A DNA stretch of 64,000 nucleotides from a virus (IMGVR_UViG_3300020365_000010:1-64000); one strand, 5' to 3'; positions 1,661-52,941 are shown, counted from the stretch's first letter. Program-made: numbers and translations. Notes: generated by a model not told the origin, from the sequence alone.

Positions 1661-2498
1661 ATTCTACTCCGTAGATCCTGGTGTTGCTACACTTCACCCA
1701 TTATATCCTGCACGAAAGTTACAGCGTAAGTGGAGGACTGATGCACTTAAGGACATGAATACTTCTGAGCGTAGATGTCCATACCTGAAACTTAAGAATG
1801 CTTGGACACGAGCATCTAATGAATTGCGAGGTATTCAAGGTGATGTGCCAGCAAATGTTGCACATGCAGTGACATGTCCAGCAATTGCAAATATCATGGA
1901 TTCAGGTTACATTCTGCCATGTCCTGGTGATATTATGATCAGGACTGATGGTAGTGGTGTAAACTTTGAATGGATGTCTCAAGTATTATTTGGACCCGCA
2001 AAAAGGTTTGTTAAGGCACATGCACCAGAGCAAACTGAAGGTTTCAGACAACTTGTGGATCAACAAAAAGATGTGCTTGATTGGACTATCAAATTAGAAT
2101 TACCTTGGCGGGTGCAAGCACATCCAGATATTGTATTCATTCAAATGCCTATCGCATATCATGATGAGGATAGATTCTCACCTCCACTTGGTATTGTTGA
2201 TCCATCATATTCATATGAGATTAACTTACAACTCTTCTGGCATAAGATTGAGGAGGGTGAATATCTAATTAAAGCAGGCACTCCACTATGTCAATGGGTG
2301 CCAGTGCATAGAGATTTCCTACGAATGAAAGGGTGGGATGTTGTTATTGAAGAGGCAAATGCTGATGACTTTGAAAACAATGAGTTGATGGAATACCAGA
2401 AGCATAGGCATTTCATGGAGTTTCAAACACTCAGAGATAGGATCAAAACACACAAACTGATCTTGTCGCTAAATAAAAACATCAAGAGGTTTATGTAA
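1617..2498 (+). CDS. Conserved hypothetical protein (CP-x-I-x-N-x-M-x-x-GY-x-L-P type, possibly DUF6065-like)
   Basis: Long ORF; GGAGA 6 nt before ATG 1617; motif TCPAIANIMDSGYILP. Confidence 0.7.
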   Translation: MGLMNMFTKKKKWIRFYSVDPGVATLHPLYPARKLQRKWRTDALKDMNTSERRCPYLKLKNAWTRASNELRGIQGDVPANVAHAVTCPAIANIMDSGYILPCPGDIMIRTDGSGVNFEWMSQVLFGPAKRFVKAHAPEQTEGFRQLVDQQKDVLDWTIKLELPWRVQAHPDIVFIQMPIAYHDEDRFSPPLGIVDPSYSYEINLQLFWHKIEEGEYLIKAGTPLCQWVPVHRDFLRMKGWDVVIEEANADDFENNELMEYQKHRHFMEFQTLRDRIKTHKLILSLNKNIKRFM

Positions 2499-2499
2499 C

Positions 2500-2859
2500 A
2501 TGTCTGAGCAAACAGTAACTGAAGTTGATTTGACTGAAGAGGCAGGAGTGCCATCACAAGAGAGACTTGATGCACTCAATGATGAGAATTCAATCCCCGA
2601 AGGTACACTTATCTCCTTCGATCAACTGGTGATGAATTTCCTTCAGCAGCATGAAGATGCCAAAGAAGATTATAAGAAACTTCAAGAGGCATTGGATAAC
2701 ATGCACTACACTTCTACGATCACAAAGATCTCACTAGAAGAATTGCAGTTGAAGAAAGATCATATCAATAAACTCACTGGTGCTATTGAAGCAATGGCAT
2801 TGTATAAGAAGTATGTTGATCCTGAAGTAACAGATAAGGACTTTGTGTTTGAAGAATGA
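2500..2859 (+). CDS. Hypothetical acidic coiled-coil protein
   Basis: 119-aa ORF tightly coupled to both neighbours. Confidence 0.75.
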   Translation: MSEQTVTEVDLTEEAGVPSQERLDALNDENSIPEGTLISFDQLVMNFLQQHEDAKEDYKKLQEALDNMHYTSTITKISLEELQLKKDHINKLTGAIEAMALYKKYVDPEVTDKDFVFEE

Positions 2860-3491
2860 ATACACAATTGTTATTCCCCACACCTCTCTGGACTCAGAAA
2901 GATTGTGGGGTTGATAGGCAACCAATCATTGATTTTGTCCACTATGTGCAAAAAGAAGACCCAGATGGTCGCCGTGCCAGTAATGCTGGAGGTTGGCAAT
3001 CGTGGGACTTCGTTGATCATGTAATGCTAGACAATCCTCTCAAACCATTGAGAGATAAGATTCTAGAGTGTGCATACTATGCAGCAGATCAATGGGGGTT
3101 TCAACAGTATTCTCTTAAGATTCTAAACCTGTGGATAAATGTCAACAAGAAAGGACATTTTAACCACATGCACACACATGCAGGGTCAATACTTTCTGGA
3201 GTATACTATCTAAGAATCCCCTCATGTTGCTGTGGTAATATCACATTTCATCAGGACTTTAACCAAGGTATGATGAAAGAATCGTGGGGATGTGCTGCTA
3301 ATTTTAGTAGATATGAAGACATGAATGAGATTGAGCATGATGAGTATCCTGCTGAAGATACCATGCTATTGTTTCCATCATGGTTGCCTCATAGTGTGAG
3401 TGCATCATCATCAGGAGATGAGAGAATCTCTATCTCATTTAATATCGCTGCCTTCTCAGATCATTATCATGAAGTATATCCAACTAGATAA
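2856..3491 (+). CDS. Putative 2OG-Fe(II) oxygenase (TIGR02466-like)
   Basis: LWINVN..HMHTHAGSILSGVYY and LLFPSWLPHSV..RISISFN. Confidence 0.88.
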   Translation: MNTQLLFPTPLWTQKDCGVDRQPIIDFVHYVQKEDPDGRRASNAGGWQSWDFVDHVMLDNPLKPLRDKILECAYYAADQWGFQQYSLKILNLWINVNKKGHFNHMHTHAGSILSGVYYLRIPSCCCGNITFHQDFNQGMMKESWGCAANFSRYEDMNEIEHDEYPAEDTMLLFPSWLPHSVSASSSGDERISISFNIAAFSDHYHEVYPTR

Positions 3492-4131
3492 TTTCCTGTC
3501 TCCGACTATATTCAAACGCCTTCAGTTAATGACAGGTGGTGAGAATGGATTCCCCTGGTATTTCTTATCCAAAGATGTGGCATATTCCACAGATGGGTAT
3601 CAATTCGGTAACATGGATATTCTTGATATTGCACCAGAGCAGAAGACAGTAGGATTCACTCATGTGCTGCTAGATCAAGGTGGGATTGAATCACCTTGGT
3701 TAGTACATTTCCAACCATTGTTAGATTGTATGCAAGATGCAATTGGTCATGACATTAACTTCTTGAGAGTTAGACTTGCATTACAATTAGCAAACGGAAA
3801 GGATAGTCACAACGCTGCACATACTGACTGGGAGAATGATCATTATGCTGCATTATTCTATTTGAATAATTCATCAGGTGACACAGTATTCTTTGATCAG
3901 TATGATGATCCTAATGAAGGTACTGTTGACGAGAGATGGTATAGAGGTAGGACACAGGAATATACTGAGCGACACAGAGTCACACCTGAAGAGAATAAAC
4001 TCTTCATCTTTGATGGGCATCAGTATCATTCATCATCCAATCCAGTAGATAATCCTTACAGGATAATTTGTAACTTTAATTTCACATGTGACCATGATAT
4101 CTTCGATCATCAACAAACTCAAATCCTGTAG
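3469..4131 (+). CDS. 2OG-Fe(II) oxygenase superfamily protein
   Basis: AHTDW (HxD), LFYLNNSSGDTVFF, IFDGHQYHSS, RIICNFN. ATG 3469 is the likely start. Confidence 0.85.
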   Translation: MKYIQLDNFLSPTIFKRLQLMTGGENGFPWYFLSKDVAYSTDGYQFGNMDILDIAPEQKTVGFTHVLLDQGGIESPWLVHFQPLLDCMQDAIGHDINFLRVRLALQLANGKDSHNAAHTDWENDHYAALFYLNNSSGDTVFFDQYDDPNEGTVDERWYRGRTQEYTERHRVTPEENKLFIFDGHQYHSSSNPVDNPYRIICNFNFTCDHDIFDHQQTQIL

Positions 4132-4801
4132 AGATTGGACACTAGATGACACACCATATTTGTGGCGTGGAATTGTTGATAATCCATCAGTATTTGTGAC
4201 ATGGAAAGAGGTAGAAGAGTGCCTTAATAATCCTCAATTCTATGATCTTCAATTTATTGATCATAATGGCAGAAATGTGCCCATTCCTGCCTATCGTCGC
4301 CCCTGGACGCATGAATTCACTCCAGAGGTAAAAGATGTCATTGATCAGTTTAATCATGGTCACACAGTTATTATCAATAACTTTGAATACATGCGTGGTA
4401 AGCAAGAGTTATTGAATTGGGTTGAGACATACTTTGCCAACATTCGTGCAGCGTTTCATGTATACTGTGGTGCTGAAACATCACGCTCATTTAATATCCA
4501 TGAGGATGATGCACATAACTTTATTGTGCAGATTGATGGTGAGACACAATGGACAGTGTATAATCACAGGAAGTCAGAGTTAGTCACCAATCATCCACCT
4601 GATAACATTGACCATGATAATCTTGAGGTGTTGATTGACACAACCCTGTTGCCTGGTGATATACTATACATCCCCAAACATTACTATCATAGAGCACAAC
4701 CAAGAGGCAAGAGATTGTCCCTAAGTATTCCTATGGTGTGCCCAGAGTTTGCTGGTCCTGAGATGAAATTCCAAGACAGAAAGTATTATGAAATCACTTA
4801 A
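4094..4801 (+). CDS. JmjC/cupin-4 family oxygenase
   Basis: FNIHEDDAHNFIVQIDGETQW and LLPGDILYIPKHYYHRA..RLSLSIP. Confidence 0.87.
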   Translation: MISSIINKLKSCRDWTLDDTPYLWRGIVDNPSVFVTWKEVEECLNNPQFYDLQFIDHNGRNVPIPAYRRPWTHEFTPEVKDVIDQFNHGHTVIINNFEYMRGKQELLNWVETYFANIRAAFHVYCGAETSRSFNIHEDDAHNFIVQIDGETQWTVYNHRKSELVTNHPPDNIDHDNLEVLIDTTLLPGDILYIPKHYYHRAQPRGKRLSLSIPMVCPEFAGPEMKFQDRKYYEIT

Positions 4802-5402
4802 TCCTTTCCCTATTATTCACAAAGCACACTATGATTTCGATTGGAAGACAATCAAACCATCTGTGCAGGGATATATCCAAGCAGCACAAGAGCACATCCA
4901 AGAGTTTAATCTAGACACACCAGAAAAGGATGGTGGTATAACAACTGTGCCCATCAGTAAGAGTCATCATCCACCACATGTGTGGGATTGTTTTGAGGAC
5001 TTTAGACCGTGGTTATATGAGAGAGTGAATAGAGTCTGGGAAGAATGGAAGTTGCAACCAATGGATAAACATCTCTCAGATTCATGGTTAAACTGTCATC
5101 CACCTGGAGCATATACCTCTGAGCATCATCATCAGAATGTCACAGTTGCTGTTGCATGTTATCTACATGTGCCTAAGAATAGTGGCAGACTGATGGTAAA
5201 GAATCCATTCTATCCTTATCGCTTAGGTGATCCTCTCCACCATGCATATTATGATGAGGGTATGGATTGGGAATACATTGATGTTACATCTGGAGATGTC
5301 CTATTCTTCCCTGGTTGGTTGACACATAAGACCGAGAGAAACTATAGTGAGAAGGACAGATATATTATGTCAATGAATATCATGGGAAGATATGTCAATT
5401 AA
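4788..5402 (+). CDS. Putative 2OG-Fe(II) oxygenase (TIGR02466-like)
   Basis: SWLNCHPPGAYTSEHHH, VACYLHVP, GDVLFFPGWLTHKT..RYIMSMN. Confidence 0.87.
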   Translation: MKSLNPFPIIHKAHYDFDWKTIKPSVQGYIQAAQEHIQEFNLDTPEKDGGITTVPISKSHHPPHVWDCFEDFRPWLYERVNRVWEEWKLQPMDKHLSDSWLNCHPPGAYTSEHHHQNVTVAVACYLHVPKNSGRLMVKNPFYPYRLGDPLHHAYYDEGMDWEYIDVTSGDVLFFPGWLTHKTERNYSEKDRYIMSMNIMGRYVN

Positions 5403-6099
5403 AGTATATGATACTAATGTGGTGAATTGGGATGTGTATGACACAATCATGCACCTTCCATATACATTTACTCGCACAGATGTGCCACCAGCAGAGGGTC
5501 AACCTGATGTAGATGCTAGAGGATTATATTGGACACATCAATTATATAATTATTGTCCGATTGAAGATCCTGATTACTATCAGAATGCAGGATTAGATGG
5601 TAGTGATCATCCCATCTACAAGGATATTCTGACATACTTAGAAGCAACCATTAAAGATATGCCACCTAGAGATAATCTCTACTCGGCATATATTAACGTG
5701 CTTCGTGCTCATGATTGCCCAGGTATTCACTGTGATGCTCCATACTTTGTGGATGACAATCAGACTGTGATTGTATATCTTAATCCTGGTTGGGATGCTA
5801 ACTGGGGTGGTGAAACTATATTCTTTGATGATGATCTAGATGCTCGCAAGTTAGTGCAACCTAGACCTGGACGTGTTGTTATGTTTGATGGTAGAATTCC
5901 ACACACTGGCAGACCACCAACGCCCAAGTTTGCTCACAATAGATATATTTTGTCGCTAAAGTATATGGATAGAGAGACGCGACGAAAGTTATTTGTTGAT
6001 CATGAGATGAATAACATGCCTCCAGTATTTGACAAGGGGATCGCAGGTTTTGATCCCCTGACAGTTAAAGAAATCTGGAGAAACATTGCGCCAATCTGA
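5392..6099 (+). CDS. 2OG-Fe(II) oxygenase (prolyl-hydroxylase-like)
   Basis: GIHCD (HxD), VYLNPGWDANWGGET, PRPGRVVMFDGRIPHTG. Confidence 0.88.
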   Translation: MSIKVYDTNVVNWDVYDTIMHLPYTFTRTDVPPAEGQPDVDARGLYWTHQLYNYCPIEDPDYYQNAGLDGSDHPIYKDILTYLEATIKDMPPRDNLYSAYINVLRAHDCPGIHCDAPYFVDDNQTVIVYLNPGWDANWGGETIFFDDDLDARKLVQPRPGRVVMFDGRIPHTGRPPTPKFAHNRYILSLKYMDRETRRKLFVDHEMNNMPPVFDKGIAGFDPLTVKEIWRNIAPI

Positions 6100-17951: not shown

Positions 17952-20900
17952 TGGCAGCGTATGTTGAGGAGACTTCTAGGAGTTACCCCAATCCAATATC
18001 ATCTCAAGAGATGGCGACTACTTTTAAGCGACCATCGTCTGGAAAGTATCGCTCTCATGAATCTGCCCCAGGGGTAGGCACAGGCACCGATTATCAAATC
18101 ACCTTCCAAGGTGCGGGTCCTGGGTCATTTCCTCTGGGGAGAGATATTGTACACTATATCGGTGATATCGATCCTCAATGCGTAGGCAACTGTGATGGAG
18201 ATCGTCAAGCGATCTATCGTTTCTGGAGAAGTAATAAAAGAGATCATAAGTATGCAATCACACCCCAACTTCAGAAGAAGGACATGGGTGTTGAGAATGA
18301 AGACTGGGAGAAGGCAGCAGGTGGTTACAGACCCGAGCCTAAGAATGGCAAACCTGTATTCTATTTGCTGCGAGAGCAACTAGACAATACTGTCCCTGTC
18401 AAACTATTCTATTCATACTGGCCTGATAATACATTGCTACACGCTGGGTCTGGTAACCCAGGTGGTATCACAATAGGCAATGGTAAGGGCAAGTATATGG
18501 ACCTGGGTATCATTGGGTATGCCTATGCCTCTCAGGAGAGCGGCACAGTGCCTCTGTATCATTACCGCTATGGTAGCTACGGTGCAAGCAAAGGTAAAGA
18601 CATTGATGACTTCTATACTATCGACCCCTCTCAAGAAGTTGACCTAGGAGGCGGTCCTATACCCCCTAGGAAACCGCGAGAGGGGCGTTGGCAGTATCAG
18701 GGTATCGAATGCTATGTTTATAGTGGAGAGGATCCTAATGCTCCCAAGAGGACATACAGAGACATTGGTAAGATAGGTCCTACTGGTCAGTGTATCAATA
18801 AGCGTAGTTGGTATGCATGGCCTGCTGACGATCAACCATTTAACTGGAGAGTTTATAACAGAGGTGGATATCCTGGTGGTTATCCTAACGGTCCTGCTGG
18901 TGCGACTCCTGGTGTGTTGGGATTTGGTAATCCAGACAACGTAGAGTTGCTTAGTGAAGATGCAAACTTTGAATGGGCATACGGACTCAACGGTGCAATC
19001 AAAGGAGCAGTGCCACGCTTCCTAGGATTTGAGGATAGTTATGACTCACAGTTTTACTATTATCTCTACGACACATCATATCCTTGGAATGGTCCGATCT
19101 TTGGTATTCAGTATGCGCTGAATGATATTCCTTGCTGTCCTAATACTACATGTAATGATGAGAATAGTGAGAGACCTAGACCCTGTTGTATTCCTAACGA
19201 CCACCACTACTCTCATTTCTATGAGATCCGTGAAGATTCTTGGGAAACAACCAAGACACGCATGAGTATCAATGACATCAGCACCAATGGTGTGAAAGAG
19301 TCATTCCAATGTATTGATACTGATAGTCGTCGTATCCTCTTCCGCTATACATCTACCAGTGGTAGTTTCAAGCGAGGAGAGACTCTCAATGGTTGGATCA
19401 TCGGATCCGTAGTTTACTACGGAGATGAGTTGAAGTGTGGACTGATTGAGCTCAATGCTGGCGCAGTAGGTAGCAAATTCTCATATAACCAAACAATCAC
19501 TTCTGCAGATGGCGGCACTGCTGTAGTCCTTGCTGGATATGGTATCCCCAACAAAGGAGCGTTTGCGGGCGTTTATGAATTCCCTAAGCGGATCTCCTAC
19601 TATGAAGTGGAGATTAACCCTAAGGCACTCATCCCTACACGCACACTTGACCTAGCAGAAGCGGAAGCAGTAGTCGATAACAACGGATCGATTACAGAAG
19701 TGATCATGATTGCGGGCGGTAAGGGTTATAAGAATCCAACTGTTGAGGCAATCAACCCCAGAGTCATGGATTCCTACTCCGCTGGTGACTTGTCTAAGTT
19801 TATGCAAGACGGTGTTGTCAAGGGTGATGAGGCAAATATCAGTAATTCATTCCTAACTCCCGACACTTCAAACATTATTGATAATAATGTCCGCGATACC
19901 TTTGAATCTCTTGGTGTGCAGAATGGTGAGATACCCTATGCTACAGATAAGAATGCGGAAAAAATGAAACTCAAGAAAGCAATCTTGGAGATTTCCGAGA
20001 TTACTGAAGATGGGGAGATCATGTCTATCCGTGTTGTTGATGGTGGTGCGGGATATAACCAAGCAGAGCCTCCAACAGTGATGATTGTTGAGCCTGAAAC
20101 GTTTGAATATAAGTCTCCTGAGATTCTGGATGACACGCCAGAGAATACTAGAGACAGAATAACTGACTTGGGTGCAACTTTTGCTAGTAAGTTTGTGGGT
20201 GCTATGGACGCTGAAAGTCATCAGCGCCTCAGTGGATTCATGCAAGGGTCATTTGTTACTGCAACAGCGGGTCCAAAGACATCAGTCGTGGATACTTACC
20301 TCAGAGTCCCTGATAGAGAAGAGGGTGATGAGACAAAGTATTGCTTTGATATTCCACAAAAGTGTATCAGCATTCCTGTTTACGGTCAGTTGTCTTCAGT
20401 CCCCGCTAATTGGGAGTCGTTGTTTACATATACTCAAGCAAATCCTGGTGTTGCCGAATGGTATAACACCAACAGTGGTATTGTTTCTGACGGATTCCGC
20501 AAAGGTGATGCACTACTTGATAACCTGAGTAGTGTCTATGGTGCGTTTGGCGGATCAAACTGTATTGTTTCAGGTCAACCTAAACTCTATAACATCAGAA
20601 GATGGTTTGATATGCCCTGTGCATACCTGGCATCTGGTGGAGGAGAGCAAAAGGCATTTGGTTACTTGGTTTACAAGTATACTGCATCGGAGCAACAGGA
20701 AGCATCATTCCGTGTTTCGATGGAAGTTGAAGGAAAGGTCATAGGATCTATGGGATCCGACTTCATGGATTACTTGGATACCTTCCCCAAACCAAGGATT
20801 ACACCAGCAAGAAAAGTTTCAGGTGGTTACAAGACATGGAGTTGTAGGACTGGCGGTGTTGATGGTAGATGCTATCGCGATCCATCAAACCCTAGTGACA

Positions 20901-23718: not shown

Positions 23719-25833
23719 ATGTCAGCAATTCCTTCACAACTTACGTCTCTGGACTTCTTTGAGATCAAAGAATCCATTAAATCCTACCTCAGGACTCGGA
23801 AAGAGTTTTCGGATTACGATTTTGAGGGAAGTAGCGCATCGTACCTGATCGATATCCTCGCTTATAACACATATTATACAGCATTCAACGCTAATATGGC
23901 GCTGAATGAGTCATTTCTCGAAACTGCAACCGTCAGAGACAACATTGTCCGCATTGCAAAGCAGTTAAATTACACTCCTAGGTCAATTAAAGCGCCTAAA
24001 GCGTGTATTAAGATCGAAGCACAGACAGAGATCGCTCTAAATGGCACTACATTTCCCGAATTTGCGACTTTGAAGAAGGGAGATGTGTTTGTTGCGGAGA
24101 ATGCACTCGATTCTTTCACATTTACACTCACAAGAGACATCACAGTCCCCGTAAATTCCTCAACTGGACTGGCAACTTTCGATGATGTCGTCATTTATCA
24201 AGGAAATCTGCTCTCATACAACTATACAGTTGATTATACGAAGCAACAAGAGTTTTTGATCCCTGCAGAAAACGTAGATACGGGTCTTCTCAGTGTTGAC
24301 ATCTCTCCAAACGCACAATCTTCGGAAACTGACACCTACAGTCTCGTAAATAACGCGACTGCATTGACAGAAACCTCCAGAATCTACTATTTGGAGGAAA
24401 CAGATGACCTCAGATACCGTTTGATCTTCGGTGATGGCGTTTTGGGGCGCAAATTGATTGATGGTGAATACATCAGACTGGAATATGTGCAAACTGATGG
24501 TGTAGCAGCAAACGGATCGAAGTCATTTAGCTTCATCGGCAACATTATTGACTCTGATGGGCGCGTTTTGCCTACAGCAGGCATGATGCTGCATGTCAAG
24601 GAGTCAGCACAGCAAGGCGAAGATCGCGAAACAGGTCTAAGCATCAAATTTAGAGCACCTAGAGCGTATGCAACGCAAAACCGTGCTGTGACCGAGAATG
24701 ATTATGAGCATATCGTTTCTGAAGTGTATCCTCAAGCAGCATCGGTGACTGCATATGGCGGAGAGAGACTTTCTCCACCAATTTACGGTAAAGTCTTTAT
24801 CGCTATCCGTCCTAAGACAGGCACAAAGCTCAATGCGAGCACAAAAGCGAAAATCAAGAATGATCTGAAGAAGTTTGCGGTTGCATCAATCGAGCCTGTC
24901 ATCGTTGATCCCACTTCTTACTACATTATTCCAAAATCTTACGTTTACTACGACGGAAACGCAACTTCCAATACTGGATCGCAACTTGGCACCAAAGTGT
25001 TGCAGTCAATTGACCAATTTAACAAAGCAGGTCAAACAAACCGCTTCAATAACCGTATTGATGGATCTAAGTTTGGTGCTGTGATCGATAACAGCGATAC
25101 ATCCATTGCTGGTAGCGTAACTCAGATTACTTTGGGTCAAAATCTGGATCAATTCACTTGGGGTAACGTATTTACCCAATGTTTGGACTTTGGTAACAGA
25201 ATTTACGATCCTTCATCCTATGCTGGCGACGAGCCTAAGAATGGAGACGGCACAGACCCCGATGGCAACGTCGGTGGCACAAAATGTGACCCTTCATTCT
25301 CTGTGGTCAAGTCTGGCACATTCTATGCAACTGGTTATACCGAAGATTTGGTAAACCTTGCACTTGACGAATCAACTGGCGCTCAGATCATCACTCCTGC
25401 GTTTAACTCCAACGTTGCAACTGAAGTCCTGGTCCCTGTCAACATCAGAGACGATGGTAAGGGCAACTTGATGCTGGTTACTAAGCGTGATGAGACAGAA
25501 TTGATTCTCAACCCAACCGTTGGCACGGTTGACTACGGATCTGGCAAAGTTTGCGTTGGACCTCTGGCAATTTCGGATACTCCCGACAATATCGAAAGAC
25601 TTCCAATTCAGGTCGTGCCCTACAGTGGATCTATTGACATTCCACCTGGCGTTGACCCCACAATCTTTAATCCTGCGGTTAATCCAATCGACTTTACGAT
25701 TAACACAATCCCTGTCCCCACCTTCGATCCCAACAACTTCTCGGGATACAACTTCGGTCCTACAGGGGGTATAAATATCATTGATTACCCAATGGATTCT
25801 TTCGAGTATCCAGTGCCAGACGGTTGTTTCTGA
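23719..25833 (+). CDS. gp6: Baseplate wedge subunit gp6
   Basis: LDFFEIKESIKSYL..FSDYDFEGS..LIDILAYNT, ESFLETATVRDNIV..AKQLNY, QNRAVTENDY. Confidence 0.93.
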   Translation: MSAIPSQLTSLDFFEIKESIKSYLRTRKEFSDYDFEGSSASYLIDILAYNTYYTAFNANMALNESFLETATVRDNIVRIAKQLNYTPRSIKAPKACIKIEAQTEIALNGTTFPEFATLKKGDVFVAENALDSFTFTLTRDITVPVNSSTGLATFDDVVIYQGNLLSYNYTVDYTKQQEFLIPAENVDTGLLSVDISPNAQSSETDTYSLVNNATALTETSRIYYLEETDDLRYRLIFGDGVLGRKLIDGEYIRLEYVQTDGVAANGSKSFSFIGNIIDSDGRVLPTAGMMLHVKESAQQGEDRETGLSIKFRAPRAYATQNRAVTENDYEHIVSEVYPQAASVTAYGGERLSPPIYGKVFIAIRPKTGTKLNASTKAKIKNDLKKFAVASIEPVIVDPTSYYIIPKSYVYYDGNATSNTGSQLGTKVLQSIDQFNKAGQTNRFNNRIDGSKFGAVIDNSDTSIAGSVTQITLGQNLDQFTWGNVFTQCLDFGNRIYDPSSYAGDEPKNGDGTDPDGNVGGTKCDPSFSVVKSGTFYATGYTEDLVNLALDESTGAQIITPAFNSNVATEVLVPVNIRDDGKGNLMLVTKRDETELILNPTVGTVDYGSGKVCVGPLAISDTPDNIERLPIQVVPYSGSIDIPPGVDPTIFNPAVNPIDFTINTIPVPTFDPNNFSGYNFGPTGGINIIDYPMDSFEYPVPDGCF
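25770..25777 (+). promoter_or_regulatory. T4-type late promoter
   Basis: Exact TATAAATA, 61 nt upstream of the gp7 start. Confidence 0.7.
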
Positions 25834-34800: not shown

Positions 34801-37800
34801 GCACTCCTGGTATCAACGCAACAGGGTCAAATGCTCCCTTTGTGAAATTCTCAGTGTTGGGTGATGTGACAAACATCTCCTACTACTTCGATCCTTCACG
34901 CACAGGTGATGATTCTCCTGTGGGCAGCAACTCCTTCATTGATGTCATCAAGACACCTTATGATGGTAGATTTACCGTCAGTGAAGTTGTTACTGACTTC
35001 CAATTCAAATTCCCCCTGCTCAAAGAGCCTGAGAAGAATTCTGCTGAGGTAATTACTGACGAGTTTGATAAACCATACTCTTTCTATTCAACGACTTCTA
35101 CCAGAGCAATTGGTCCTATCAACACCATCAAACTGGTGTCTCCTGGTGGTTTCTATCAGAAACTGCCTATCATTAACGATATTGCATCTTTCCGTCAAAT
35201 TGAGAAGATCATCATCAATGATGGTGGCACGGAATATGCACCTGGCATCTACTATGACGTGGCTATCGATGGTGATGGTGAAGGTGCAAAAGCAACCGTT
35301 ACTGTTGAGTTGGACGACGAAGTTGGATCTGGCACCATTAGCAACATTAGTGTTGCTGACCCTGGTAAAGGATATACCACTGCAACTATCGACATTGATG
35401 CTATTCCTGGCATCCTCGGTGCAACTCTTGCTGGATCTGGTGCATCAGCATCAGTCATCATTCCTGCAGAAGGCACTGGTGCATCAGTCTTCCTGACTGG
35501 TAGAAATATCGGTAAGATCAAGAGACTGAAGAATAATGAATTTGGTTTCGGTTACTCTCATGACTACACTCTGAGACCTGAAATCACATTCCCAGTCAAC
35601 CTGCAACTCTTCAATACTTCTATCCTGTCTGAGATCAAGATCACAGATCCTGGTAGTGGTTATACCTCAACTCCTGCTGTCGTCATCGAAGGTGGTGGTG
35701 GCACAGGTGCTGAGGCAGTAGCAGTTGTCAAAAACAACCGTCTGAGTGAAATTCAGATCAAGAATCCTGGTGCTGGTTACTCATCCGAGCCTACAGTCAC
35801 CCTGAAGTCTGAGTTTAACTACGTTGTCAACCTTGACCTCAACTATCTGCAGTTTAACTTCCCTCATGGCATCACCACTGGTGCTGCTATCCAATTCCGC
35901 TCTGACGATGTTGGTAGCACTGTGGGTGAGTTGCCTAAGCCCAGTAGCGCAGGTTTGACCACCTTGGTTGAAGGTCAGATCTACTATGCAATTGCTGGTA
36001 ATGAAAGTGGTCTGGAAAATGACCAGATTAGATTTGGTCTGACACCTCAGTCTGCTGCAGCAGGTGATTACATCACCTTCTTGACTCAGGGTAGTGGTCG
36101 TCAGGTGCTTCTGACCGAAGTCTTTGGTGGTAAAGCAGAAGCAATCGTTGAGACCTCTCGCTTCCTGGAAGGTGAGACGGTATTCCAAGGTCCTAACGTT
36201 GAGCAAGCAACTGCAACTGGCACAGTTTCAACTAACACTGGTTGGCAGATTGGTCCTAAGATTCTTAAGATCGTTGACTATGATGGCGACTGGTTGGCAG
36301 GTGAAAAAGTCACAGGCACCATCTCTAAGGCATCTGGTCTGATTGATAACCTGAGCATTGCTCGTGGTGTGCTGAATATCGGATCTTTGACCAAGACTCC
36401 TGGTAGATTTATCGATGACGTTGGTAAGCCTTCTGAGATTGTCCAGAAGATTCAAGACTCCTTCTTCTATCAAAACTTCTCTTACGTCATTAAGTCTGAG
36501 ACTCCTATCTCTAACTGGAAAACTCAGGTCCTGGAGAATAACCACGCTGCTGGTTTCGCACTCTTCGGTCAACTGCAACTGACTGGTGGTAAGGACGTGT
36601 CTGGTCGTAAGATCGGCACCGAATTCACCAAGCAGGTGAATATCAACAACTACAGTAACGTCAACCAGATCACCTCTTTCGGTGCAGCACAACCTATCTA
36701 CACCGACTTCAATAATACTGAGGTGCTCTTCCGTAAGAAGCGTCTTACCTCTTCTGAGGAAATTCTGACTTCTATCGTTAAGAAACTGGATAACGTTTCT
36801 GACAGATTCAACGGTATCGACAAGCAATTCCCCATCACAGTTGAGGGTGAGCAAGTTATCGTTAACCAGAATCAGTTGATGATCACCATCAACGGTGTGA
36901 TTCAGGCACCTGGCGATTCCTATCAGGTGGTTGGTGGTAACCTCGTATTCTCTGAGGCACCCAGACCTGCATCTAAGGTCAACTACAGAATTATCGAAGT
37001 TACACCTACTCCAATTTACAGAATCAATCTGTATTCTGGTCAGGCAGGTATTCCTAACTACGGTATCTTCCCCACCCTGGGTCAGCAGATCCAAGGCGAA
37101 AACTCTGATGCATTTGCAACTGTTATTGACTCTGGCACCAACCACTTGGATGTTATTAACATCACTGGCGGTCCTTTCGAGTTGAATGAAGAGATTGTCC
37201 GTGGCACTCTCTTCTCTGCACTGGTCCAATCCGTTGATCTGCTCAATACTGACACCATCTTCCAATTCGGTGAGTCGATTACAAACCTGGAAGGTGACAC
37301 TGCGATCATCGAAGAGACTAACCTTGTTGATGGTGTTATCAGCGATCGTCTGGTTGTTAGTAAGACTTCTGGCACCGCCAAGTATGAAACTGGTATCTTT
37401 GACCTGAAACTGAATGAGTTTATCTATTCTGCTAAGTCTAAGATTGCTGGTCAGATTACATTCATCTCACCTTATGTTGATCCTGTAACTTCCGATATCG
37501 TTACTGAGTTGGAGATCAACCCTGGATCCACATTCTACGGTCTGCTGTTTGAGCGTCTGGTTAGCATTACTAATCCTAACGTTATTCTGGATGATATCTC
37601 TAAGTCTTCTATCACTCCTACTGAGTTGTATAACGATGAAGAGCGTATCAATGCTGACTTCCTCGATTTTGAAGAAGTCAGAAGCACTGAAGTTACTTAC
37701 ACTGATCTGACTGGTGGCACTATTGCTGAAGGCGATGTCATCAAGAATAGAAGAGTTTTCTATGGCAACCCAACCTCTGCATATCATGGCACTGCAGGCA

Positions 37801-40800
37801 ATAGATTCTATGATGCTGCAACTCGTATCAGAGAGAATAAGCAGCAACTGATTGATTGGGGCGATGCTGAGATCGTCGTTGAGCATCCTGACTTCTACTA
37901 TCCTGGAGACATCCAGACAAATGAGTGGAGTAGATTTGCTGATGCACATCGCTTCATCCAGAAGAATAGACAATACATCGCTGCTAAGGCATACGATGAT
38001 ATGAAGGCACAATTCCCTTCATTCACCGATCCCAATCCCGCTAAGTGTAAGCGTGACATGGAGATCTTCATGGAGTCTCTGGGTGCTGACATCTATCGCG
38101 GTGGTAACGTCTACATCCGCAAATTTACCCAACAGTATTTCGATAGTACTGGTGCTCTAGTTTATGTGGATGGCGAGACACTTGAAACTCGTTTTGCATA
38201 TGAGAAAGTCAAGGATTATGTCCTGCTTGCTATCACCAATAACCTGAGTGGTCAGTATACTGCTCTCCATGGTCCTGACGCTGGCACTGTATATGATGCA
38301 TATCAAGATCTGACCATCACTGCTGACCAATCACCTAACGATGACTACGGCACTGCTGGTAGCAACACCGACAACACCGATCCTGACGGTTGCTCTGATG
38401 TCCAAGATGCTCTGACAACTCTGTGGGAGATTGTTGATGAGGCACTGACAAATGGCACTCTGTCTGAGTTGCCCGATGAGCAAGTTGGCACTTACTCTCC
38501 TGGTCAGGTCAAGTGTCGTCGTGACGCTGGTCTGTTTGTCGATGCTCTGGCAAATGACGTTGCACAAGGTGGCAACTTCAACATTGTAGAATTCACCAAG
38601 TCATACTTTGATGGTGCTGGTGTCCCTCTGACGAATGGTCTGGTTGGCGAGACTGCTGAGTCAATCACTGTCTTCAATAAGATCCGTGACCTGGCATACA
38701 GAGCAATCAACAACCTGCTGTATGACAAGGATCTTGAGATTCTCTACGATCCTCTGACCTATGGTGGCACTGCTCCTGGTCAACTGTATGATGCAAACTA
38801 TGCAAATGGTAACAACCAGGATATCAACAACTGTGCTGATGTCCGTGCTTACATTGCAACCCTGACAGATATTGCTACTGTTGCAATTGCTGCTGGTAAC
38901 CTCAATAACGTCAACGCTCTGGCATCTGTCAGCGACGGCACATATGTTGACGGTGAGACAATCCGCACAGCGAAGATTGCATATGACGATAAGTCTTCTG
39001 GTCTGTTTGTCCTCGGTCAGCAAATCCGAGGCGTTACCTCAGGTGCAGTCTTTGAAGCCGTTGGCGTCAACTCTGGTCTGAAGTGGATCTTTGCTGGTCC
39101 TATCACAGGCACTCTGCAAGAAGGTGAGTTGCTTACCAACTCAACTCTGGCAAATCAGGGTAACGTTGTCCAAACCAAGGTCAACAAGTATTTCAGACTC
39201 GATGGGCAAAAGGCACTTTCCTTCCCACAAGCAGGTTATCTGGTTGCTGCAGATTCTTACGATTATGCATTCGGCACTGCAGATGACTTCACTATCGAAG
39301 GTTGGTGGGCAGCTGCAGGAGTAACTGGCACACAAACTCTGGTTGACTTGCGTCGTAACGATGTAAACGTTGGTCTGCGCCTGGTAATGGATGGCAGCAC
39401 CCTCAGAGTTTACAACGGCACTACTCAGTTGATCTCTGGTGGCACTATCACTGCAACTCTCTGGCAGCATATTGCTCTGGTGAGAAACAACAATGTCCTC
39501 CAGTTGTATGTGGATGGCACTCAGGTTGGCAGCAACTATGTTGATACCAATGACTACCTGTATACCAAGGTAACTATCGGTGCTGACTTCAACGCAGCAA
39601 CTGGATACACTGGTTTCCTTGATAACTTCTTTATCAACAACAAGCAAGGTCTGTATACTCAGTCCTTCATCCCTGCCACACAGGTTGATTACACTAATGA
39701 CAACATTGTCTTGGGTCTTAATGGTGAGGGCGACTTCATCTGCTCCACGACTGAGACATTTGCAACCTTCACTGGATCTCGCACCTCGTCGGCAACTGCT
39801 AAGGTCATTGACTACGAAACTAAGTCTCTGATCATCAAGGATGTTGATCTGGGTAGAGCAGAGCAAAGAAGATGTGCAGACATCATTGAATTGAATGATG
39901 CATGGATTGCTGAAGAGGCAGTCGGAATGATGAAGGCACAATTCCCCGACTTCATCATGCCTGGTGATGATCCTGCTAACAACTCTTACGGTGGCACAAA
40001 CTACTGTCTGCGTGATACCAAGGATTACATCATTGGTGCATTGATTAAGGACCTCAGAGAAGGTGGTAACTATCACACTCTGTATACCGCTCGCACATAC
40101 CTGGAAGCATCAGGAAAACTGAAGCACGTTGGTAATGAGATTCTGCAGACCCTTTACACATGGGATGTGGTTGGTGACATCATCAACACTGTAATTACAA
40201 CCACAAGTCTGGATCTGACAGGAGCTTACAGTGAGAAACTGAGAATTCCTAACAACTTCTCCTCACCTGCGTCACAATCAGTCCAAGATGAAATTCGTGC
40301 TCTGATTGATGATCTCCTGCAAGTCCTTGCACCAACCCGTAATGGATTCAAGGATTCTGGTGTCCTCATCTGGAAAAACCGCGATTACATCGCAGAAGAA
40401 GTTGTTGGTTACCTCAATGACAAGTATACCAAGGACATTGATGGCACAGAGACCAACTTCCTCATCATGCCTGGTGCAGGTAGCTCTGGATGTATTGATG
40501 ACATCAAGAATTATATTCTCCCTGGTATTATCGGTGACCTTGTTACAGGGGGCACTTACAACACCAAGGCAGTAATCGACAACTATCTTGACTCTCAGGA
40601 TAATATCCTGCACGTTGAGCATGAGTTGAATCCCATGCTGGACGCCTTTGCATACGCTAAATTCCTGTGCTTGAAAGCAGCAAACAACATGCTGGTTTCT
40701 CCTAATACCACAGTTGCTGAATTGGGTGTGCCCGCTTGGGTCCAAAATGGCGATTACTACGAGCCTCTCTATACCACCAGATCAGCATATCGCGATGACA

Positions 40801-43800
40801 CTATCACTATTGACACTCAAGGATGGCCTCAAACTGGAGTTGCTAACTGGAGTAACTACTATGATGCATGGAGACTGATCAAGGGTAATCAGAAGTTGAT
40901 TGCTAAGGAAGCAGTGGCAATCATGAATGATCTGTCCAAGTATCAGACATTCGAGATCCCTGGTGGTGCTGTCAACTGTGAAGATGACATTGAGGACATG
41001 ATTGATGCCGTCCTGCACGATTTGCTCCATAATTGCAACAAAGAAATTTGGGAAGCAGCGGAGCTCTACATCGAGCCTGAGGACAATTCACTCAAGCATA
41101 TTGAAAGTGAGTGGGAAGCATCTGTAACCACTTACAAGATTGTTAGAGACCTTTGCACTCTGGCAATGCGTAATGCACTTGGTAGAGATTACATCGAAGG
41201 AAATGGTCCTGGATCGACTTCTGTCCAATCCTACGAGCAGAATCCATTCGAGATCATGTATCGCGATACCGCAGATGCTATCGACGCTAACATTCGTCTG
41301 ATTGCTGAAAACGCTGTCTACGACGGTATGCAGCAATATCCTTCATTGAATATCAACGGTGGTATTCGTGGCGGTCAGGAATTTGATGTTGTAACTGCAA
41401 CTTACGACCCTGCAAACGGCGTTTCGGTCATCAACCTTGGTGCTGGTCATGGACTGGTTACTGGAAACAGAATCACAATCCAACCCGAGTCTATCGGTTT
41501 CACCTGCACTCTGGATCAAAACAGTGCTACCAAATACTATCCCCGTAAGGGCGATGGCAACTATAACGCATCTATTGCAATTACTGCACATACCTCAGAT
41601 ACAATCACGGTAAACGTGGGTGCATCTGGTGTTGATGGTCAGTATGCTCACACCTTCGTCACCGCTAAGAAAGGTGCTGTGGTCTCCAATGGTTACATCG
41701 ATTGTGTCCATGACACAACTGATATCCTGAAGTCACTGGTCTTCAACTTGAAGTATGGTGGCGAAAACTGGATGCAGTATGCTGCTGAATTCTATGTCAA
41801 CACTGCAAATACTATTCAGCACCTGAGTGGTGTTACAACAGAGTCTATCTGGATTCTGGAGAGAGCACGCGACCTGGCGAAGCGTGCAATGAGAGATCAA
41901 CTGATCACTAACAATGCTGGATGGAGTGCAGGACAGCGTTACTACGACGCTACGCCTCAACCCACCAACCAATTGAGAAATGTTGATCCTGTCAGTGGCG
42001 TTGATATTACTACGTTTAACAACATCTCTACTAGAGATTGGGCATTCCGCACAGTTAGCATCAGCACCAACCCTGCAGTTGGTGTGACGCCTACTGAAGA
42101 TGCTGTATTTGAATTTGATGCCGTCCTGCCTAGCAGCGGTCTGACAGACTTTACTTTCCTGTCATTTGGTAATAACTCTTCCCAGGGTCTGTATCTTGGA
42201 TTCCGTGACAACCAAACTTATCTGAGACTGCGTGCTGGTAACTCCGACACTACTGTTGCAGGTGGTGCTTCACATAGCGATACTGGTCTGGCATTGGTTG
42301 ACGTGCCTGTTGCTGACCTGATTGCTGATGGTTACTTCGATGATAATCGTCACCAGATTACTATTGAGATCCGTGTTGGTGGTAACCAGATCCTTGGCGC
42401 TGGTCGTGTGAGAATCTGGATTGATGGTAATCAAATTGGAGAAGGTCAGACCCCTGGTAATACTTCTACGGGTCTTGGTGAAGCAGCAGGTATCTGGTGT
42501 GCAGATAACAACAATGGCACTTACGGTGGTGGTTATGCTGCTGCTTCTGTGCCCGCTGGTGAGAATAACACAACTGCACCTCTCTCACCCTATGCTCCTA
42601 GTGATCTGATCTACTACAGAAATCGTCAGGTTGATCCTGGTTTCACTGGCACTGAGACTTCAGAAATCGAAGCAAGAATCGATACTCTGATGCAGGTTGT
42701 TACTAATGCAATCTCCAATCCTGGTAACGTTGCAAACAATTCCTACAGTCTGCCTTATATCTGGCCTATCAAGTATACGCCCGAGAAGGCATATAGAGAT
42801 CTGACAGTCGGATATGACTTCGCTAATGGTGGTCAAGATCAAGATGGTTTCTGGAATCAGACATGCCCCAATGTCGCATCCGCTATTGATACACTGTTTG
42901 ACATTGTTATCAATACCATCACAGAAGCTGCTGTCAATAGCAACAACTACTTGACTGGTGTGCCTAAGACTCTGCCCCCAACTAACAATACAGAATATCA
43001 AGCAGGCACTTGCCATAACGAGCAATCTGCTATCGACACTCTGTTTGATATCATGATTGATACTCTTGGTGGTGGCACTAATAATGAGAAGCATGTTGCA
43101 AATATGCTGCTCTTCAACCACCAGGCAATTGCACAAAGAGTAATTGATCAAACTACTGCAAACTATGCATCCACAAACGTAGATATCTCCTTCGCGGATG
43201 CTGTCTTGCGTGCGGTTAGATATGACATGGTTACTGGCGGTAATGCTGGATCATTCCGTCTCGCTCAGACATGGTTTGATGGTGAAGGTAACTTCATCGC
43301 CTTCCAAGATACAACTAGATCTCACCTGATCTATGCTCTGACACGTTGTCGTGAGTATATCAAGAGTGCTCTGTATCTCCTGGATGAAGATCCAGGTTGG
43401 GCAGGATATCCCACCTTCGCAGGTGATGATGGACAACGCTTTGAGTGGTTCCAGGAAGCAGCAGAGTTTATTATTGACTCCTCCCTCAACCCTCTGGAAT
43501 ATGCTCTCGAATTGAGCAAATTCCCAACTGAAGCAAGCGTGACCTTCGTGGCATCTACGGATGCACAAAACATGAAGACCTCGCACGAAATGGGTATTGA
43601 TTACAATACTGATCCTGCTCTGGTCTTGCTGACACCTGTTGTGGAAGTGGGTTATGAGCGTGCTGAGTATCGCATCAGAATCAACCGTCCAAACCAATTC
43701 CGTCGTGGTGATGTCCTGCAGTATATCCCTGCATCCCAGACCTCCCTGGAAGGACTTTCTGGTCAACCCTTCTTCTATTGCATCACTGCTACTGCAACAT

Positions 43801-51405: not shown

Positions 51406-52941
51406 ATGGCGCTACTTACCGACCAGTTTAGAATCTTTACTGCCGAAAGGTTTAGAAAGTCTTTGGAGGGTCCCGACCCTACTCAGTCCGACCTTGATGC
51501 TGGTAGTGATAGAGATCGACTGTATGTTTTCATCGGTCGTCCTCAGGCATGGGACAATGAGAATGCACCCCCAGACCCCGTGGATTCATTCCAGGAGTTT
51601 GCGGATGACTATTCCGATATGATCTCCATGAAGAGGGTGCTGGCGAATGATACTATTCAGGTTATTAGACGCACCGACTGGATTCCTCCTGAGCAAACCA
51701 CTGGTGGCTTGGGTTATGTTTATGACATGTATCGTCATGACTATAGCTCAACTAAGACCGCATCTTCTGGTGCTACCAAACTTTATGATGCAGACTTTTA
51801 CGTTGTTAACTCATCGTATCAGGTATATAAGTGCATTTATAACGGAACATCCCCTAGTGATCCTAACGGTAAGCCTTCTACTGTTGAGCCTACGGGTACT
51901 TCAACTTCTATTATTACCACTGCTGACGGTTATCGTTGGAAGTATATGTATACGATCCCTGTGGGTCAGGTGCTGAAATTCTTCTCCAATGAATACATGC
52001 CTGTGCTGAGTGACACCGCTGTGGTGTCTGACGCAATCGGTGGTGAGATCGATACTGTTATTATCGCATCCTCTGGTGCTGGTTATAACAACGGCACTTA
52101 TGAAAACGTGCCCATCAAAGGCGATGGCGTTGGTGGTCGTGTTTCTCTGGTTGTTGACGGTGGTCGAATTGTCTCGGCAACAGTGACTTCGGGTGGTAGC
52201 GGTTACACCTTCGGTAAGGTGGTGATCGATGAGGTCAACGGTATCGGTGCTGGCACAGGCACAGGTGGTAACGTTGAAGTGGTTGTGCCTCCTACTAAGG
52301 GTCACGGTGCAGATCCTGCTACCGAGCTTGGTGGTTTCCGAGTCATGATCAACACCAAGTTTACCTACGCTGAAGGTAGTGGTGACTTCCCAACTGATAA
52401 CGACTACCGTCGTATCGGTCTTGTCATCAACCCTAACAAGTATGGCACGCAAGAATTGACTGCTGATCTTACGTTGTCTGCAACGAAAGCAGTTATCTTT
52501 GCACCTTCCTTTACTGGTAACTTCCAGACTGACGAAATTATCACACAGTCTCGCACAATTGGTGGTCAGCAAGTGACTGCTCGTGGTCGTGTGATTTCCT
52601 GGAATAGCACCACAAAGGTCCTTAAGTATTACCAGAATAGGATTGATGGTATCTTCCCAGAATTTACTGGTAACTTGATTGAGTTTGAAGGTGGTAACCC
52701 TGTGGTGGGTGCTACATCAGGTGCGTCCGCTGACCCTGATATCAACTTCCCCATCGTTTCTGGTGCGTCAACTCGTATCATCAACAACACTGAATATGAC
52801 CTTGGTATGGCGTTTACCAACGGTTATGCAAAACCTGAGGTCCAACCTAACAGTGGAGAAGTTATCTACATAGATAACAGAGGCGCGATTACTCGTGCTG
52901 GAGACCAAATCGAAGACATCAAAATCGTAATCGAGTTCTAA
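51406..52941 (+). CDS. gp8: Baseplate wedge subunit gp8
   Basis: LYVFIGRPQAW, YDMYRHDY, FYVVNSSYQVYKCIYN, ADGYRWKYMYTI, SGEVIYIDNR..EDIKIVIEF. Confidence 0.92.
   Translation: MALLTDQFRIFTAERFRKSLEGPDPTQSDLDAGSDRDRLYVFIGRPQAWDNENAPPDPVDSFQEFADDYSDMISMKRVLANDTIQVIRRTDWIPPEQTTGGLGYVYDMYRHDYSSTKTASSGATKLYDADFYVVNSSYQVYKCIYNGTSPSDPNGKPSTVEPTGTSTSIITTADGYRWKYMYTIPVGQVLKFFSNEYMPVLSDTAVVSDAIGGEIDTVIIASSGAGYNNGTYENVPIKGDGVGGRVSLVVDGGRIVSATVTSGGSGYTFGKVVIDEVNGIGAGTGTGGNVEVVVPPTKGHGADPATELGGFRVMINTKFTYAEGSGDFPTDNDYRRIGLVINPNKYGTQELTADLTLSATKAVIFAPSFTGNFQTDEIITQSRTIGGQQVTARGRVISWNSTTKVLKYYQNRIDGIFPEFTGNLIEFEGGNPVVGATSGASADPDINFPIVSGASTRIINNTEYDLGMAFTNGYAKPEVQPNSGEVIYIDNRGAITRAGDQIEDIKIVIEF

Follow-up and report, generated by a model that had tools for sequence, protein, structure and literature searches.

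Phycobiliprotein-related domains with conserved bilin-attachment cysteines in the giant baseplate protein of a cyanomyovirus

The phycobiliproteins, the light-harvesting pigment proteins of the cyanophage host, and the antenna protein ApcE are the closest described relatives of the domains discussed here. ApcE attaches its own bilin without a lyase, a precedent for autocatalytic loading. On the phage side, the nearest counterpart is gp7 of phage T4, a protein of ~1030 aa. T-type bilin lyases serve the Cys at beta-153/165 (PMC10452541), and the role of the cpeT and bilin-synthesis genes carried by phages has been described as unresolved and as a mystery (PMC3037559). Further, P-HM1, P-HM2 and S-PM2 require light for adsorption, a requirement that does not depend on photosynthesis by the host, and P-SSM2 adsorbs in the dark; light-sensitive host receptors or tail fibres have been invoked, with no named candidate (PMC6628666). 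Our search of the literature returned no paper describing phycobiliprotein-like domains in a cyanophage baseplate protein, and none that reports colour or fluorescence of cyanophage particles.

The window analysed here is a stretch of viral DNA of 64,000 nucleotides (IMGVR_UViG_3300020365_000010:1-64000), in which the array at 37800-43511 lies inside a single very long open reading frame (Table 1). The virus is a marine cyanomyovirus of the Kyanoviridae. Gene order places the reading frame at the position of T4 gp7, and the same order is found in S-WAM1, whose homologue is annotated as baseplate wedge initiator; homologues of the protein carry either this name or that of gp7. Among PHROG families, phrog_701 and phrog_2885, annotated as virion structural or baseplate wedge proteins, give strong matches to the protein; the Pfam family Baseplate_wedge (PF23786) scores 15.7 bits, short of its cut-off of 27. 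A YHYH domain and a lectin-like Laminin_G_3 domain are also present in the protein.

Table 1. Coordinates of the array, its inserts and the flanking baseplate genes in the window
Feature	Coordinates	Strand	Description
gp6 homologue	23719-25833		phrog_219
Array-bearing reading frame	25839-46376	+	6845 aa
Half repeat R0	37800-37907	+	A-B helical hairpin only, without Cys site; HMM positions 2-37
Repeat 1	37926-38435	+	full domain; HMM positions 1-161, 145 bits; site Cys codon 38046 (KCKRD); second Cys 38391, capping last helix
Repeat 2	38427-38873	+	own first helix absent; HMM positions 17-160; site Cys 38514 (KCRRD); second Cys 38832
Concanavalin A-like lectin domain (Laminin_G_3)	39276-39635	+	between repeats 2 and 3; PF13385, E 4e-14
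Repeat 3	39867-40316	+	HMM match; site Cys 40005 (YCLRD)
Repeat 4	40341-40823	+	HMM positions 2-134; site Cys 40491 (GCIDD), Asp replacing Arg86
Repeat 5	40848-41288	+	HMM positions 1-149; site Cys 40977 (NCEDD), Asp replacing Arg86
Repeat 6 (split)	41259-42032	+	two HMM pieces, positions 4-37 and 26-150; A-B helices 41259-41360, remainder 41658-42032 with site Cys 41703 (DCVHD)
Insert inside repeat 6	41361-41657	+	~99 aa, beta-rich; weak DUF7243 match
Spacer between repeats 6 and 7	42033-42848	+	~270 aa
Two orphan Cys-capped helices	42864-43058	+	Cys codons 42864 and 43011; resemble last helix of repeats 1 and 2
Repeat 7 (degenerate)	43077-43511	+	HMM positions 6-107, 48 bits
gp8 homologue	51406-52941		phrog_438

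Iterated HMM searches resolved the array into seven repeats of ~150 aa, which align with one another, and one N-terminal half-repeat. This stretch of 1903 aa contains 18 of the 29 Cys of the whole protein. The half-repeat has a weak PF00502 match of its own (37797-37913) and forms helices 2-15 and 17-31 of a three-part structural model (pTM 0.87), in which the final helix of repeat 1 continues unbroken into repeat 2, 20 residues long in all (202-221). Repeats 5 and 6 likewise share a helix, the last of the one being the first of the other, and their HMM matches overlap. Repeat 3 carries a phycobiliprotein-like PGxxxxNSYGG loop ahead of its site Cys, has no Cys ahead of its last helix and gives the strongest PF00502 match of any single repeat (profile positions 33-84). 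The residue two places after the site Cys is Arg in repeats 1-3, and Asp or His in repeats 4-6. The orphan helices fit the consensus C-x-D-V-x-x-x-I-x-T-L of HMM positions 147-160, and the spacer before them had no significant match among Pfam families. All the Cys codons of Table 1 had been quoted, together with their motifs, in the initial annotation and were located exactly where it had placed them. Its description of a seventh copy devoid of the Cys is borne out as well: site Cys, Arg and Asp are gone from repeat 7, and the GGN motif is retained. In correction of that annotation, the region contains, besides the repeats, parts that are not phycobiliprotein-like: the lectin-like domain, the insert within repeat 6 and the long spacer.

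The seven domains are true relatives of phycobiliproteins. PF00502 scores 26.7 bits against the whole protein (E 6e-6; cut-off 22.2 bits) and only ~15 bits against single repeats, which is under the cut-off, and a precomputed PF00502 match is present in most of the homologous giant proteins. When a profile of 146 copies was compared with 177,635 PDB sequences, the best 60 matches were all phycobiliproteins (top E 1.5e-5). In its alignments the repeat Cys, Arg and Asp fall in register with Cys82/84, Arg86 and Asp87, and the repeat GG aligns with the phycobiliprotein E-F turn. The Cys-to-GG spacing is the same as in CpcA, aligned without gaps, as the initial annotation had proposed for phycocyanin alpha. 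Profile-profile comparison with hhalign gave P values of 5e-7 against 60 CpcB sequences and 7e-8 against 59 CpcA sequences. The similarity is confined to phycobiliprotein residues ~35-103, where ~65 residues align collinearly, loop length included; identity is ~15%, and a profile of the C-terminal half had no match in the PDB.

Structural models agree with the profiles. The AlphaFold2 model of repeat 1 (pLDDT 92.7) superimposes on phycoerythrin beta (5aqd_M) with a VIA Z score of 15.2 and an rmsd of 2.1 Å over 137 residues. Phycobiliproteins or ApcE make up its eight best VIA matches, and no other globin exceeds a Z of 10.7. The three-part model gives a Z of 15.6 to phycoerythrin beta, and the alignments of both models span 137-147 residues at 2.1-2.4 Å. 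The matches listed by Foldseek are all phycobiliproteins or close homologues, one of them titled bacterial fluorescent protein, with weak E values (best 5.6e-3). Each domain is equivalent to the beta subunit of a phycobiliprotein from helix A to helix H, minus the X-Y hairpin: the globin-like core helices A, B, E, F, G and H are present in the models, the repeat begins at helix A, and the sequence and structure alignments begin at phycobiliprotein residue 29-38, the N-terminal X-Y helical hairpin being absent. The claim of tandem phycobiliprotein-like domains with conserved bilin-attachment Cys is supported in agreement by the profile searches, by the hhalign comparisons and by both models, which are confident, and the models give a globin-type fold rather than some other helical bundle. 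The further likeness suggested for the later helices, namely the G helix and a Cys-capped last helix, is supported by fold and helix register only, the sequence similarity not being significant.

The attachment site is conserved well beyond the window. The family comprises 1540 representative clusters at 50% identity. Among 512 non-redundant copies, the Cys is present in 97.7% and the Asp in 99.4%, and position +2 is Arg (79%) or Asp (18%), against a column identity among copies of only ~22%. The second Cys occurs in 245 of the 253 copies that possess the last helix. Of the 233 copies lacking that helix, 229 retain the first Cys; since it is thus present with or without the second, its retention cannot be put down to a disulfide between the two. 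At the end of both structural alignments, the second Cys falls on residue 165 of the 184-aa phycoerythrin beta; CpeB of marine Synechococcus has Cys165 followed by 19 residues. Invariant across the family are also Asn14, GGN, Tyr73, Glu88 and Asn109, and a family-specific polar Asp57. Asn14, GGN, Tyr73, Glu88 and Asn109 are not known as residues of the phycobiliprotein bilin pocket, and their invariance may reflect a different constraint.

Based on these observations, we consider that the domains may be pigmented, with a bilin on the conserved Cys of most copies; we put the probability of this reading at roughly 45%. A host phycobiliprotein gene would have been captured anciently and then amplified within the baseplate and fibre proteins of cyanophages. 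In the infected cell, most copies would receive phycoerythrobilin or phycocyanobilin, joined by a thioether to the equivalent of Cys82/84 and held by the invariant Asp and the usual Arg, as in phycobiliproteins. Repeats 1 and 2 could bear a second bilin on the Cys that caps their last helix, the equivalent of beta-Cys153/165 and a T-type lyase site. Attachment might be autocatalytic, as in ApcE, or aided by the phage CpeT, and a pigmented baseplate could couple light to adsorption or triggering.

The most serious competitor, and one with a real chance of being correct, is that the domains are unpigmented structural modules. The captured fold would be reused as a stiff helical unit from which a very long baseplate or fibre protein is built, and the conserved Cys, Asp and GGN would be needed for folding, for binding a metal or for contacts between subunits once the baseplate is assembled. 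The helices that run continuously between neighbouring domains and the rigidity of the three-part model are what such a role would lead one to expect, and so is a copy number, resembling that of a spacer array, of 3 to ~36 matched stretches per protein among relatives. Half-domains and split domains are common in the family, and repeat 7 has been retained despite the loss of its site. Further, the most conserved family residues are not those known to line the bilin pocket, Arg86 is often replaced by Asp, which (like His) would not suit a bilin propionate, and reports of pigment were lacking in the literature searched. However, it is hard to explain on structural grounds alone why a Cys without a conserved partner should be kept so nearly universally in oxic seawater by copies this divergent. 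The retained residues are, moreover, exactly the triad that holds the bilin in the parent family, and the second Cys sits at the other attachment site of beta subunits.

It is improbable, in our view, that the pocket has instead been retooled for another ligand, be it a small molecule, a metal or a host-surface structure recognised together with the lectin-like domains. The Laminin_G_3 and YHYH domains of the same protein fit with receptor recognition, sensor globins, which bind varied ligands, are the next-best structural matches (Z ~8-10.7), and the invariant polar Asn14, Asp57, Glu88 and Asn109, specific to the family, suggest a new binding surface. Yet none of the results indicates a specific ligand, sensor globins match clearly less well than phycobiliproteins do, and the triad fits the chemistry of bilin rather than haem, the consensus lacking a conserved His where globins have the proximal one. 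Finally, chance or convergent resemblance of an unrelated helical bundle that has a short C-x-R-D motif in common would sit with the low single-repeat scores, the weak Foldseek E values and the frequency of middling Z scores among helical models, but it is contradicted by the profile search, the hhalign P values, the collinear alignment, the three-part model and VIA Z scores that exceed those of all non-phycobiliprotein globins by 2-5 units, and can hardly be entertained.

A more far-reaching proposal, unlikely when taken as a whole, is that the arrays form a bilin-bearing photoreceptor in the baseplate and fibres of most marine cyanomyoviruses, loaded in the infected cell with the aid of the phage's CpeT, and that the state set by light gates adsorption.

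For the reading of pigmented domains itself there is circumstantial evidence on both sides. Among 18 complete cyanomyovirus genomes, 15 encode the domain together with the lyase gene cpeT, the other three encode neither, and no genome is discordant. As the three double negatives form one clade (support 99/99), this co-occurrence counts as a single event. The cpeT gene belongs to the structural module that extends from gp5 to the fibres; in all records where this could be assessed (15 of 15), a second fibre gene with an array lies 0.4-2.2 kb downstream of it. The lyase gene lies within a tRNA-rich variable island adjoining gp5, and its adjacency to the array genes may be positional only. In P-HM2, cpeT is transcribed with the middle genes and the array genes are late (PMC5082946 supplement). 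In the lineage of the window itself, a short and divergent cpeT is located far away from the gp7 gene. The bilin genes anticipated by the initial annotation were not found: no ho1, pebS/pcyA or cpeT is present in the 76-kb record, which is only 43% complete. Arrays are present in the light-dependent P-HM1, P-HM2 and S-PM2, and the dark-adsorbing P-SSM2 has no such domain, though it encodes pebS and ho1.

A phage protein with phycobiliprotein attachment sites is a candidate substrate for the products of the phage cpeT and bilin-synthesis genes, and its domains are a candidate for the light-sensitive adsorption factor of cyanomyoviruses; the photoreceptor proposal, if true, would explain both light-dependent adsorption and the carriage of these genes. 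Pigment carriage and light sensing by a virus particle thereby become testable. Should pigment be bound, this would be, as far as is known, the first virus particle with a light-absorbing prosthetic group, and a new kind of host-gene capture, into a structural protein rather than as a metabolic gene. Should it not, the arrays would still show clearly that an antenna fold of the host has been recruited to build a virion.

Compared with known systems, the repeats most resemble the phycobiliprotein beta subunits CpeB and CpcB (PF00502), with which they share the globin-like helices, the equivalents of Cys82/84, Arg86 and Asp87 and a second Cys at the place of beta-Cys153/165. They differ in being tandem, helix-sharing copies embedded in a virion protein, in a long G-H loop that bears a small beta hairpin, and in the missing X-Y hairpin, without which the usual alpha-beta pairing is absent. 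Being part of a baseplate protein, they would not be expected to form (alpha-beta)3 discs or phycobilisome rods. The bilin-binding domain of ApcE (4xxi_A; Z 12.8-13.2) is similar in that a phycobiliprotein domain with a loop insertion and no separate partner subunit lies inside a large multidomain protein; ApcE, however, has one such domain and is part of an intracellular antenna, whereas seven are found here in a protein of an extracellular particle. The phage T-type lyase CpeT (PF06206) co-occurs with the domain across the complete genomes tested, and the equivalent of its type of target site, beta-153/165 Cys, is retained in repeats 1 and 2. Like T4 gp7, the protein is encoded between gp6 and gp8 homologues, but it is ~6.6 times longer, and additions account for most of it, namely the YHYH and lectin-like domains and the array of phycobiliprotein-like repeats.

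Seven copies and one half copy of a ~150-aa domain are arrayed in the giant baseplate protein, as delimited by an iterated HMM over ~150 related viral loci that were gathered using two smaller homologues as queries. All motifs and Cys codons of the tandem phycobiliprotein-like repeats proposed in the initial annotation were found in place, and the array it described is confirmed. Six copies align directly with one another, and 18 of the 29 Cys of the giant protein fall in the 1903-aa array stretch. A Laminin_G_3 domain sits between copies 2 and 3, a ~270-aa stretch that matches no Pfam family separates copies 6 and 7, and two orphan Cys-capped helices stand before copy 7. Compared with the seven copies here, the relatives P0112 and P0113 have 34-36 matched stretches in one ~6000-aa protein.

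Baseplate module genes of the window and elements of the giant protein, with the motif at the bilin-site Cys
Feature	Window position	Giant-protein residues	Site motif	Remark
gp6 homologue	23719-25833			
Giant ORF	25839-46376 (+)			6845 aa; after gp6 homologue
YHYH domain, PF14240	30015-30458			E 4.6e-28; N-terminal third of giant protein
Half copy		3988-4023		
Copy 1		4030-4199	C-x-R-D	
Copy 2		4197-4345	C-x-R-D	
Copy 3		4677-4826	C-x-R-D	
Copy 4		4835-4995	C-x-D-D	
Copy 5		5004-5150	C-x-D-D	
Copy 6, split		5141-5174 + 5274-5398	C-x-H-D	~99-aa insert separates pieces
Copy 7, degenerate		~5747-5891	site lost	no Cys
gp8	51406-52941			after giant ORF
gp10-position protein				2438 aa; beyond gp8
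Further large structural protein	60885-63998			matches phrog_697; runs off window end

The source record of the window is a 76-kb IMG/VR virus record (~43% complete), and the window carries a T4-like baseplate module. Synechococcus phage S-WAM1 has the same gene order, with the giant gene annotated as baseplate wedge initiator, and its counterpart of the further large structural protein bears the label "YadA domain-containing structural protein". By gp6 phylogeny, the window clusters with P-RSM6, S-SZBM1, P-TIM40 and S-WAM1 (support 100/99). The YHYH domain recurs in nearly all homologues of the giant protein. Minus-strand ORFs of 155-345 aa inside the giant gene (36228-37265, 39141-40076 and others) come from a mechanical ORF list only and carry no coding evidence.

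That the array domains are true relatives of phycobiliproteins, in homology as in fold, can be regarded as secure. The Pfam phycobilisome family PF00502 scores 26.7 bits against the whole giant protein (cut-off 22.2) and only ~15 bits against single copies, over profile positions 33-84; a precomputed match is present in most homologous giant proteins. When 146 diverse copies were combined into a profile (A2; mean column identity 22%) and searched against all PDB sequences, 163 matches were obtained at E <= 10, the best 60 of which are all phycobiliproteins (best E 1.5e-5). The aligned region, ungapped after the Cys, covers residues ~35-103; in it the repeat Cys corresponds to Cys82/84, the Arg to Arg86, the Asp to Asp87 and the GG to the E-F turn. 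Further, hhalign comparison of A2 with alignments built from cyanobacterial cpcB and cpcA loci, retrieved by a short degenerate pattern, gave probabilities of 86% for CpcB (P 5e-7) and 92% for CpcA (P 7e-8); the global alignment of the C-terminal half was unreliable and was left unused. A profile of that half found no match in the PDB, so the parallels drawn in the initial annotation for the G and H helices find no backing in sequence statistics.

Structure prediction leads to the same family. AlphaFold2 on A2 modelled copy 1 as six helices with a long G-H loop (pLDDT 92.7, pTM 0.89). The PDB matches listed by Foldseek for this model were phycobiliproteins or close homologues throughout, predominantly beta subunits (TM 0.52-0.66), one being titled bacterial fluorescent protein; the E-values were weak, the best being 5.6e-3. 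An independent structural scan of 48,161 chains gave phycoerythrin beta as the top match (5aqd_M; Z 15.2, rmsd 2.1 A over 137 residues, chain residues 32-179), followed by allophycocyanin, ApcE and phycoerythrin alpha, with photocobilins, RsbR and sensor globins at Z <= 10.7. A 364-residue model of the half copy with copies 1 and 2, from a 50-row alignment, reached pLDDT 86.8 and pTM 0.87; in it the last helix of copy 1 continues unbroken as a helix of copy 2, and copy 1 matches phycoerythrin beta up to the last residue of the chain, 184 (Z 15.6, 147 residues). Based on these matches, the modelled domain is a phycobiliprotein core lacking the X-Y hairpin, rather than the non-globin helical bundle that would have spoken against the proposal.

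The bilin site is strongly conserved. Of the 512 non-redundant copies covering it, 500 have the first Cys and 509 the Asp at +3; at +2, 406 have Arg and 91 have Asp. Of the 253 copies having the last helix, 245 carry a second Cys that caps it directly. By the end points of both structural alignments this second Cys falls on residue 165 of the 184-aa phycoerythrin beta, and in CpeB from the retrieved marine Synechococcus loci Cys165 is followed by exactly 19 residues; the second Cys thus probably occupies the Cys165 position, a correspondence drawn from register and not from residue-level alignment. Of the 233 copies without a last-helix match, 229 retain the first Cys, so a disulfide with the second is not what maintains it. 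The copies contain no further conserved Cys, and the helix-A Asp aligned with beta-Asp39 does not co-vary with the second Cys, being kept regardless.

Pigmentation of the array domains, i.e. attachment of bilin, is given a probability of roughly 45%. Set beside these conserved residues are the Asp and His variants of the site in copies 4-6 of the window and its loss in copy 7, and unpigmented structural reuse of the phycobiliprotein fold is a serious contender. A role for the domains with another ligand or as a receptor is improbable.

By tblastn, 362 phage records contain the domain; one is labelled just Marine, and the others belong to phages of Synechococcus or Prochlorococcus or to cyanophages. 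Scanning 1.84 billion representative proteins gave 1540 with E <= 0.001 (553 with E <= 1e-30); the best 150 of the 1540 are all large (730-7903 aa) and contain as many as 36 matched stretches apiece. A profile search restricted to proteins of 63-307 aa returned gene fragments only, and neither the domain as a separate protein nor any cellular phycobiliprotein. The virion proteins that bear arrays are of two kinds, the gp7-position giant seen here and a ~3400-4100-aa fibre-type protein adjoining gp12; S-PM2 has both, and P-HM2 carries arrays in gp7 and a tail fibre protein. No published description of phycobiliprotein-like domains in these proteins was found in the literature searched; the Pfam match was already latent in databases.

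Phage bilin enzymes and a lyase had been envisaged as chromophore suppliers. No gene for haem oxygenase, bilin reductase or the T-type bilin lyase (cpeT) was found in the 76-kb record, itself only ~43% complete. Of 16 larger viral records, 15 have cpeT on the strand of the fibre-type array gene and 0.4-2.2 kb upstream of it; the remaining one is truncated at this point. This position holds in related records but not in the lineage of the window, where cpeT is short, divergent and 40-110 kb from the gp7 gene. Two forms of phage CpeT are present in related genomes. The canonical form (open frame ~174-192 aa, E 1e-34 to 1e-44) adjoins the fibre-type array gene; the short divergent form (~134-224 aa, E 8e-4 to 6e-11), usually matched in two halves, occurs in genomes with arrays elsewhere, whether in a distant tail-fibre gene or the gp7-position giant. 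A variable island rich in tRNA genes, beside gp5, houses cpeT. In P-HM2, cpeT is classed as middle and the array genes as late. The CpeT of P-HM1 reportedly binds phycoerythrobilin, its natural substrate reportedly not having been established in the biochemical study of this protein. A predicted complex of phage CpeT with repeat 1 scored 0.02 and was counted neither way.

Across 18 complete genomes, cpeT and the domain are both present in 15 and both absent in three (P-SSM2, S-SM2 and S-SSM7), with no discordant case. This co-occurrence, which taken by itself would look like strong support, counts for less because the gp6 tree unites the three genomes lacking both in a single clade (support 99/99), so the association rests on a single evolutionary contrast. 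The presence of cpeT agrees with the published table except for Syn1, which is listed there without a CpeT-like cluster (PMC3037559). Syn1 (GU071105) encodes a canonical 187-aa CpeT at 19950-20462 (Pfam, E 1.5e-35), with the first phycobiliprotein-like repeat of a 4026-aa array gene following ~1 kb downstream. The full photoreceptor-plus-CpeT scenario is considered unlikely.

Two observations concern S-PM2 locus L284 (NC_006820 161500-178500). A 2OG-Fe(II) oxygenase gene (S-PM2p220, locus positions 3808-4389) separates cpeT from the array-bearing fibre gene. Further, 16 tRNA features of the RefSeq record are located within the giant fibre CDS, whose own locus tag is in tRNA style. ARAGORN predicts no tRNA within that CDS and nine at 1883-3803 of the locus, flanking cpeT, so the tRNA coordinates of the record look shifted.

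Light dependence of adsorption differs among cyanophages. In the dark, adsorption fails for P-HM1 and P-HM2 but takes place for P-SSM2, where light enhances it; S-PM2 requires light for adsorption but not host photosynthesis. Light-sensitive receptors or tail fibres were suggested by those authors (PMC6628666; PMC2984593). Sequence searches found arrays in P-HM1, P-HM2 and S-PM2 and none in P-SSM2; with just four phages compared, of which two are near-identical, this parallel between the array and the need for light is suggestive only.
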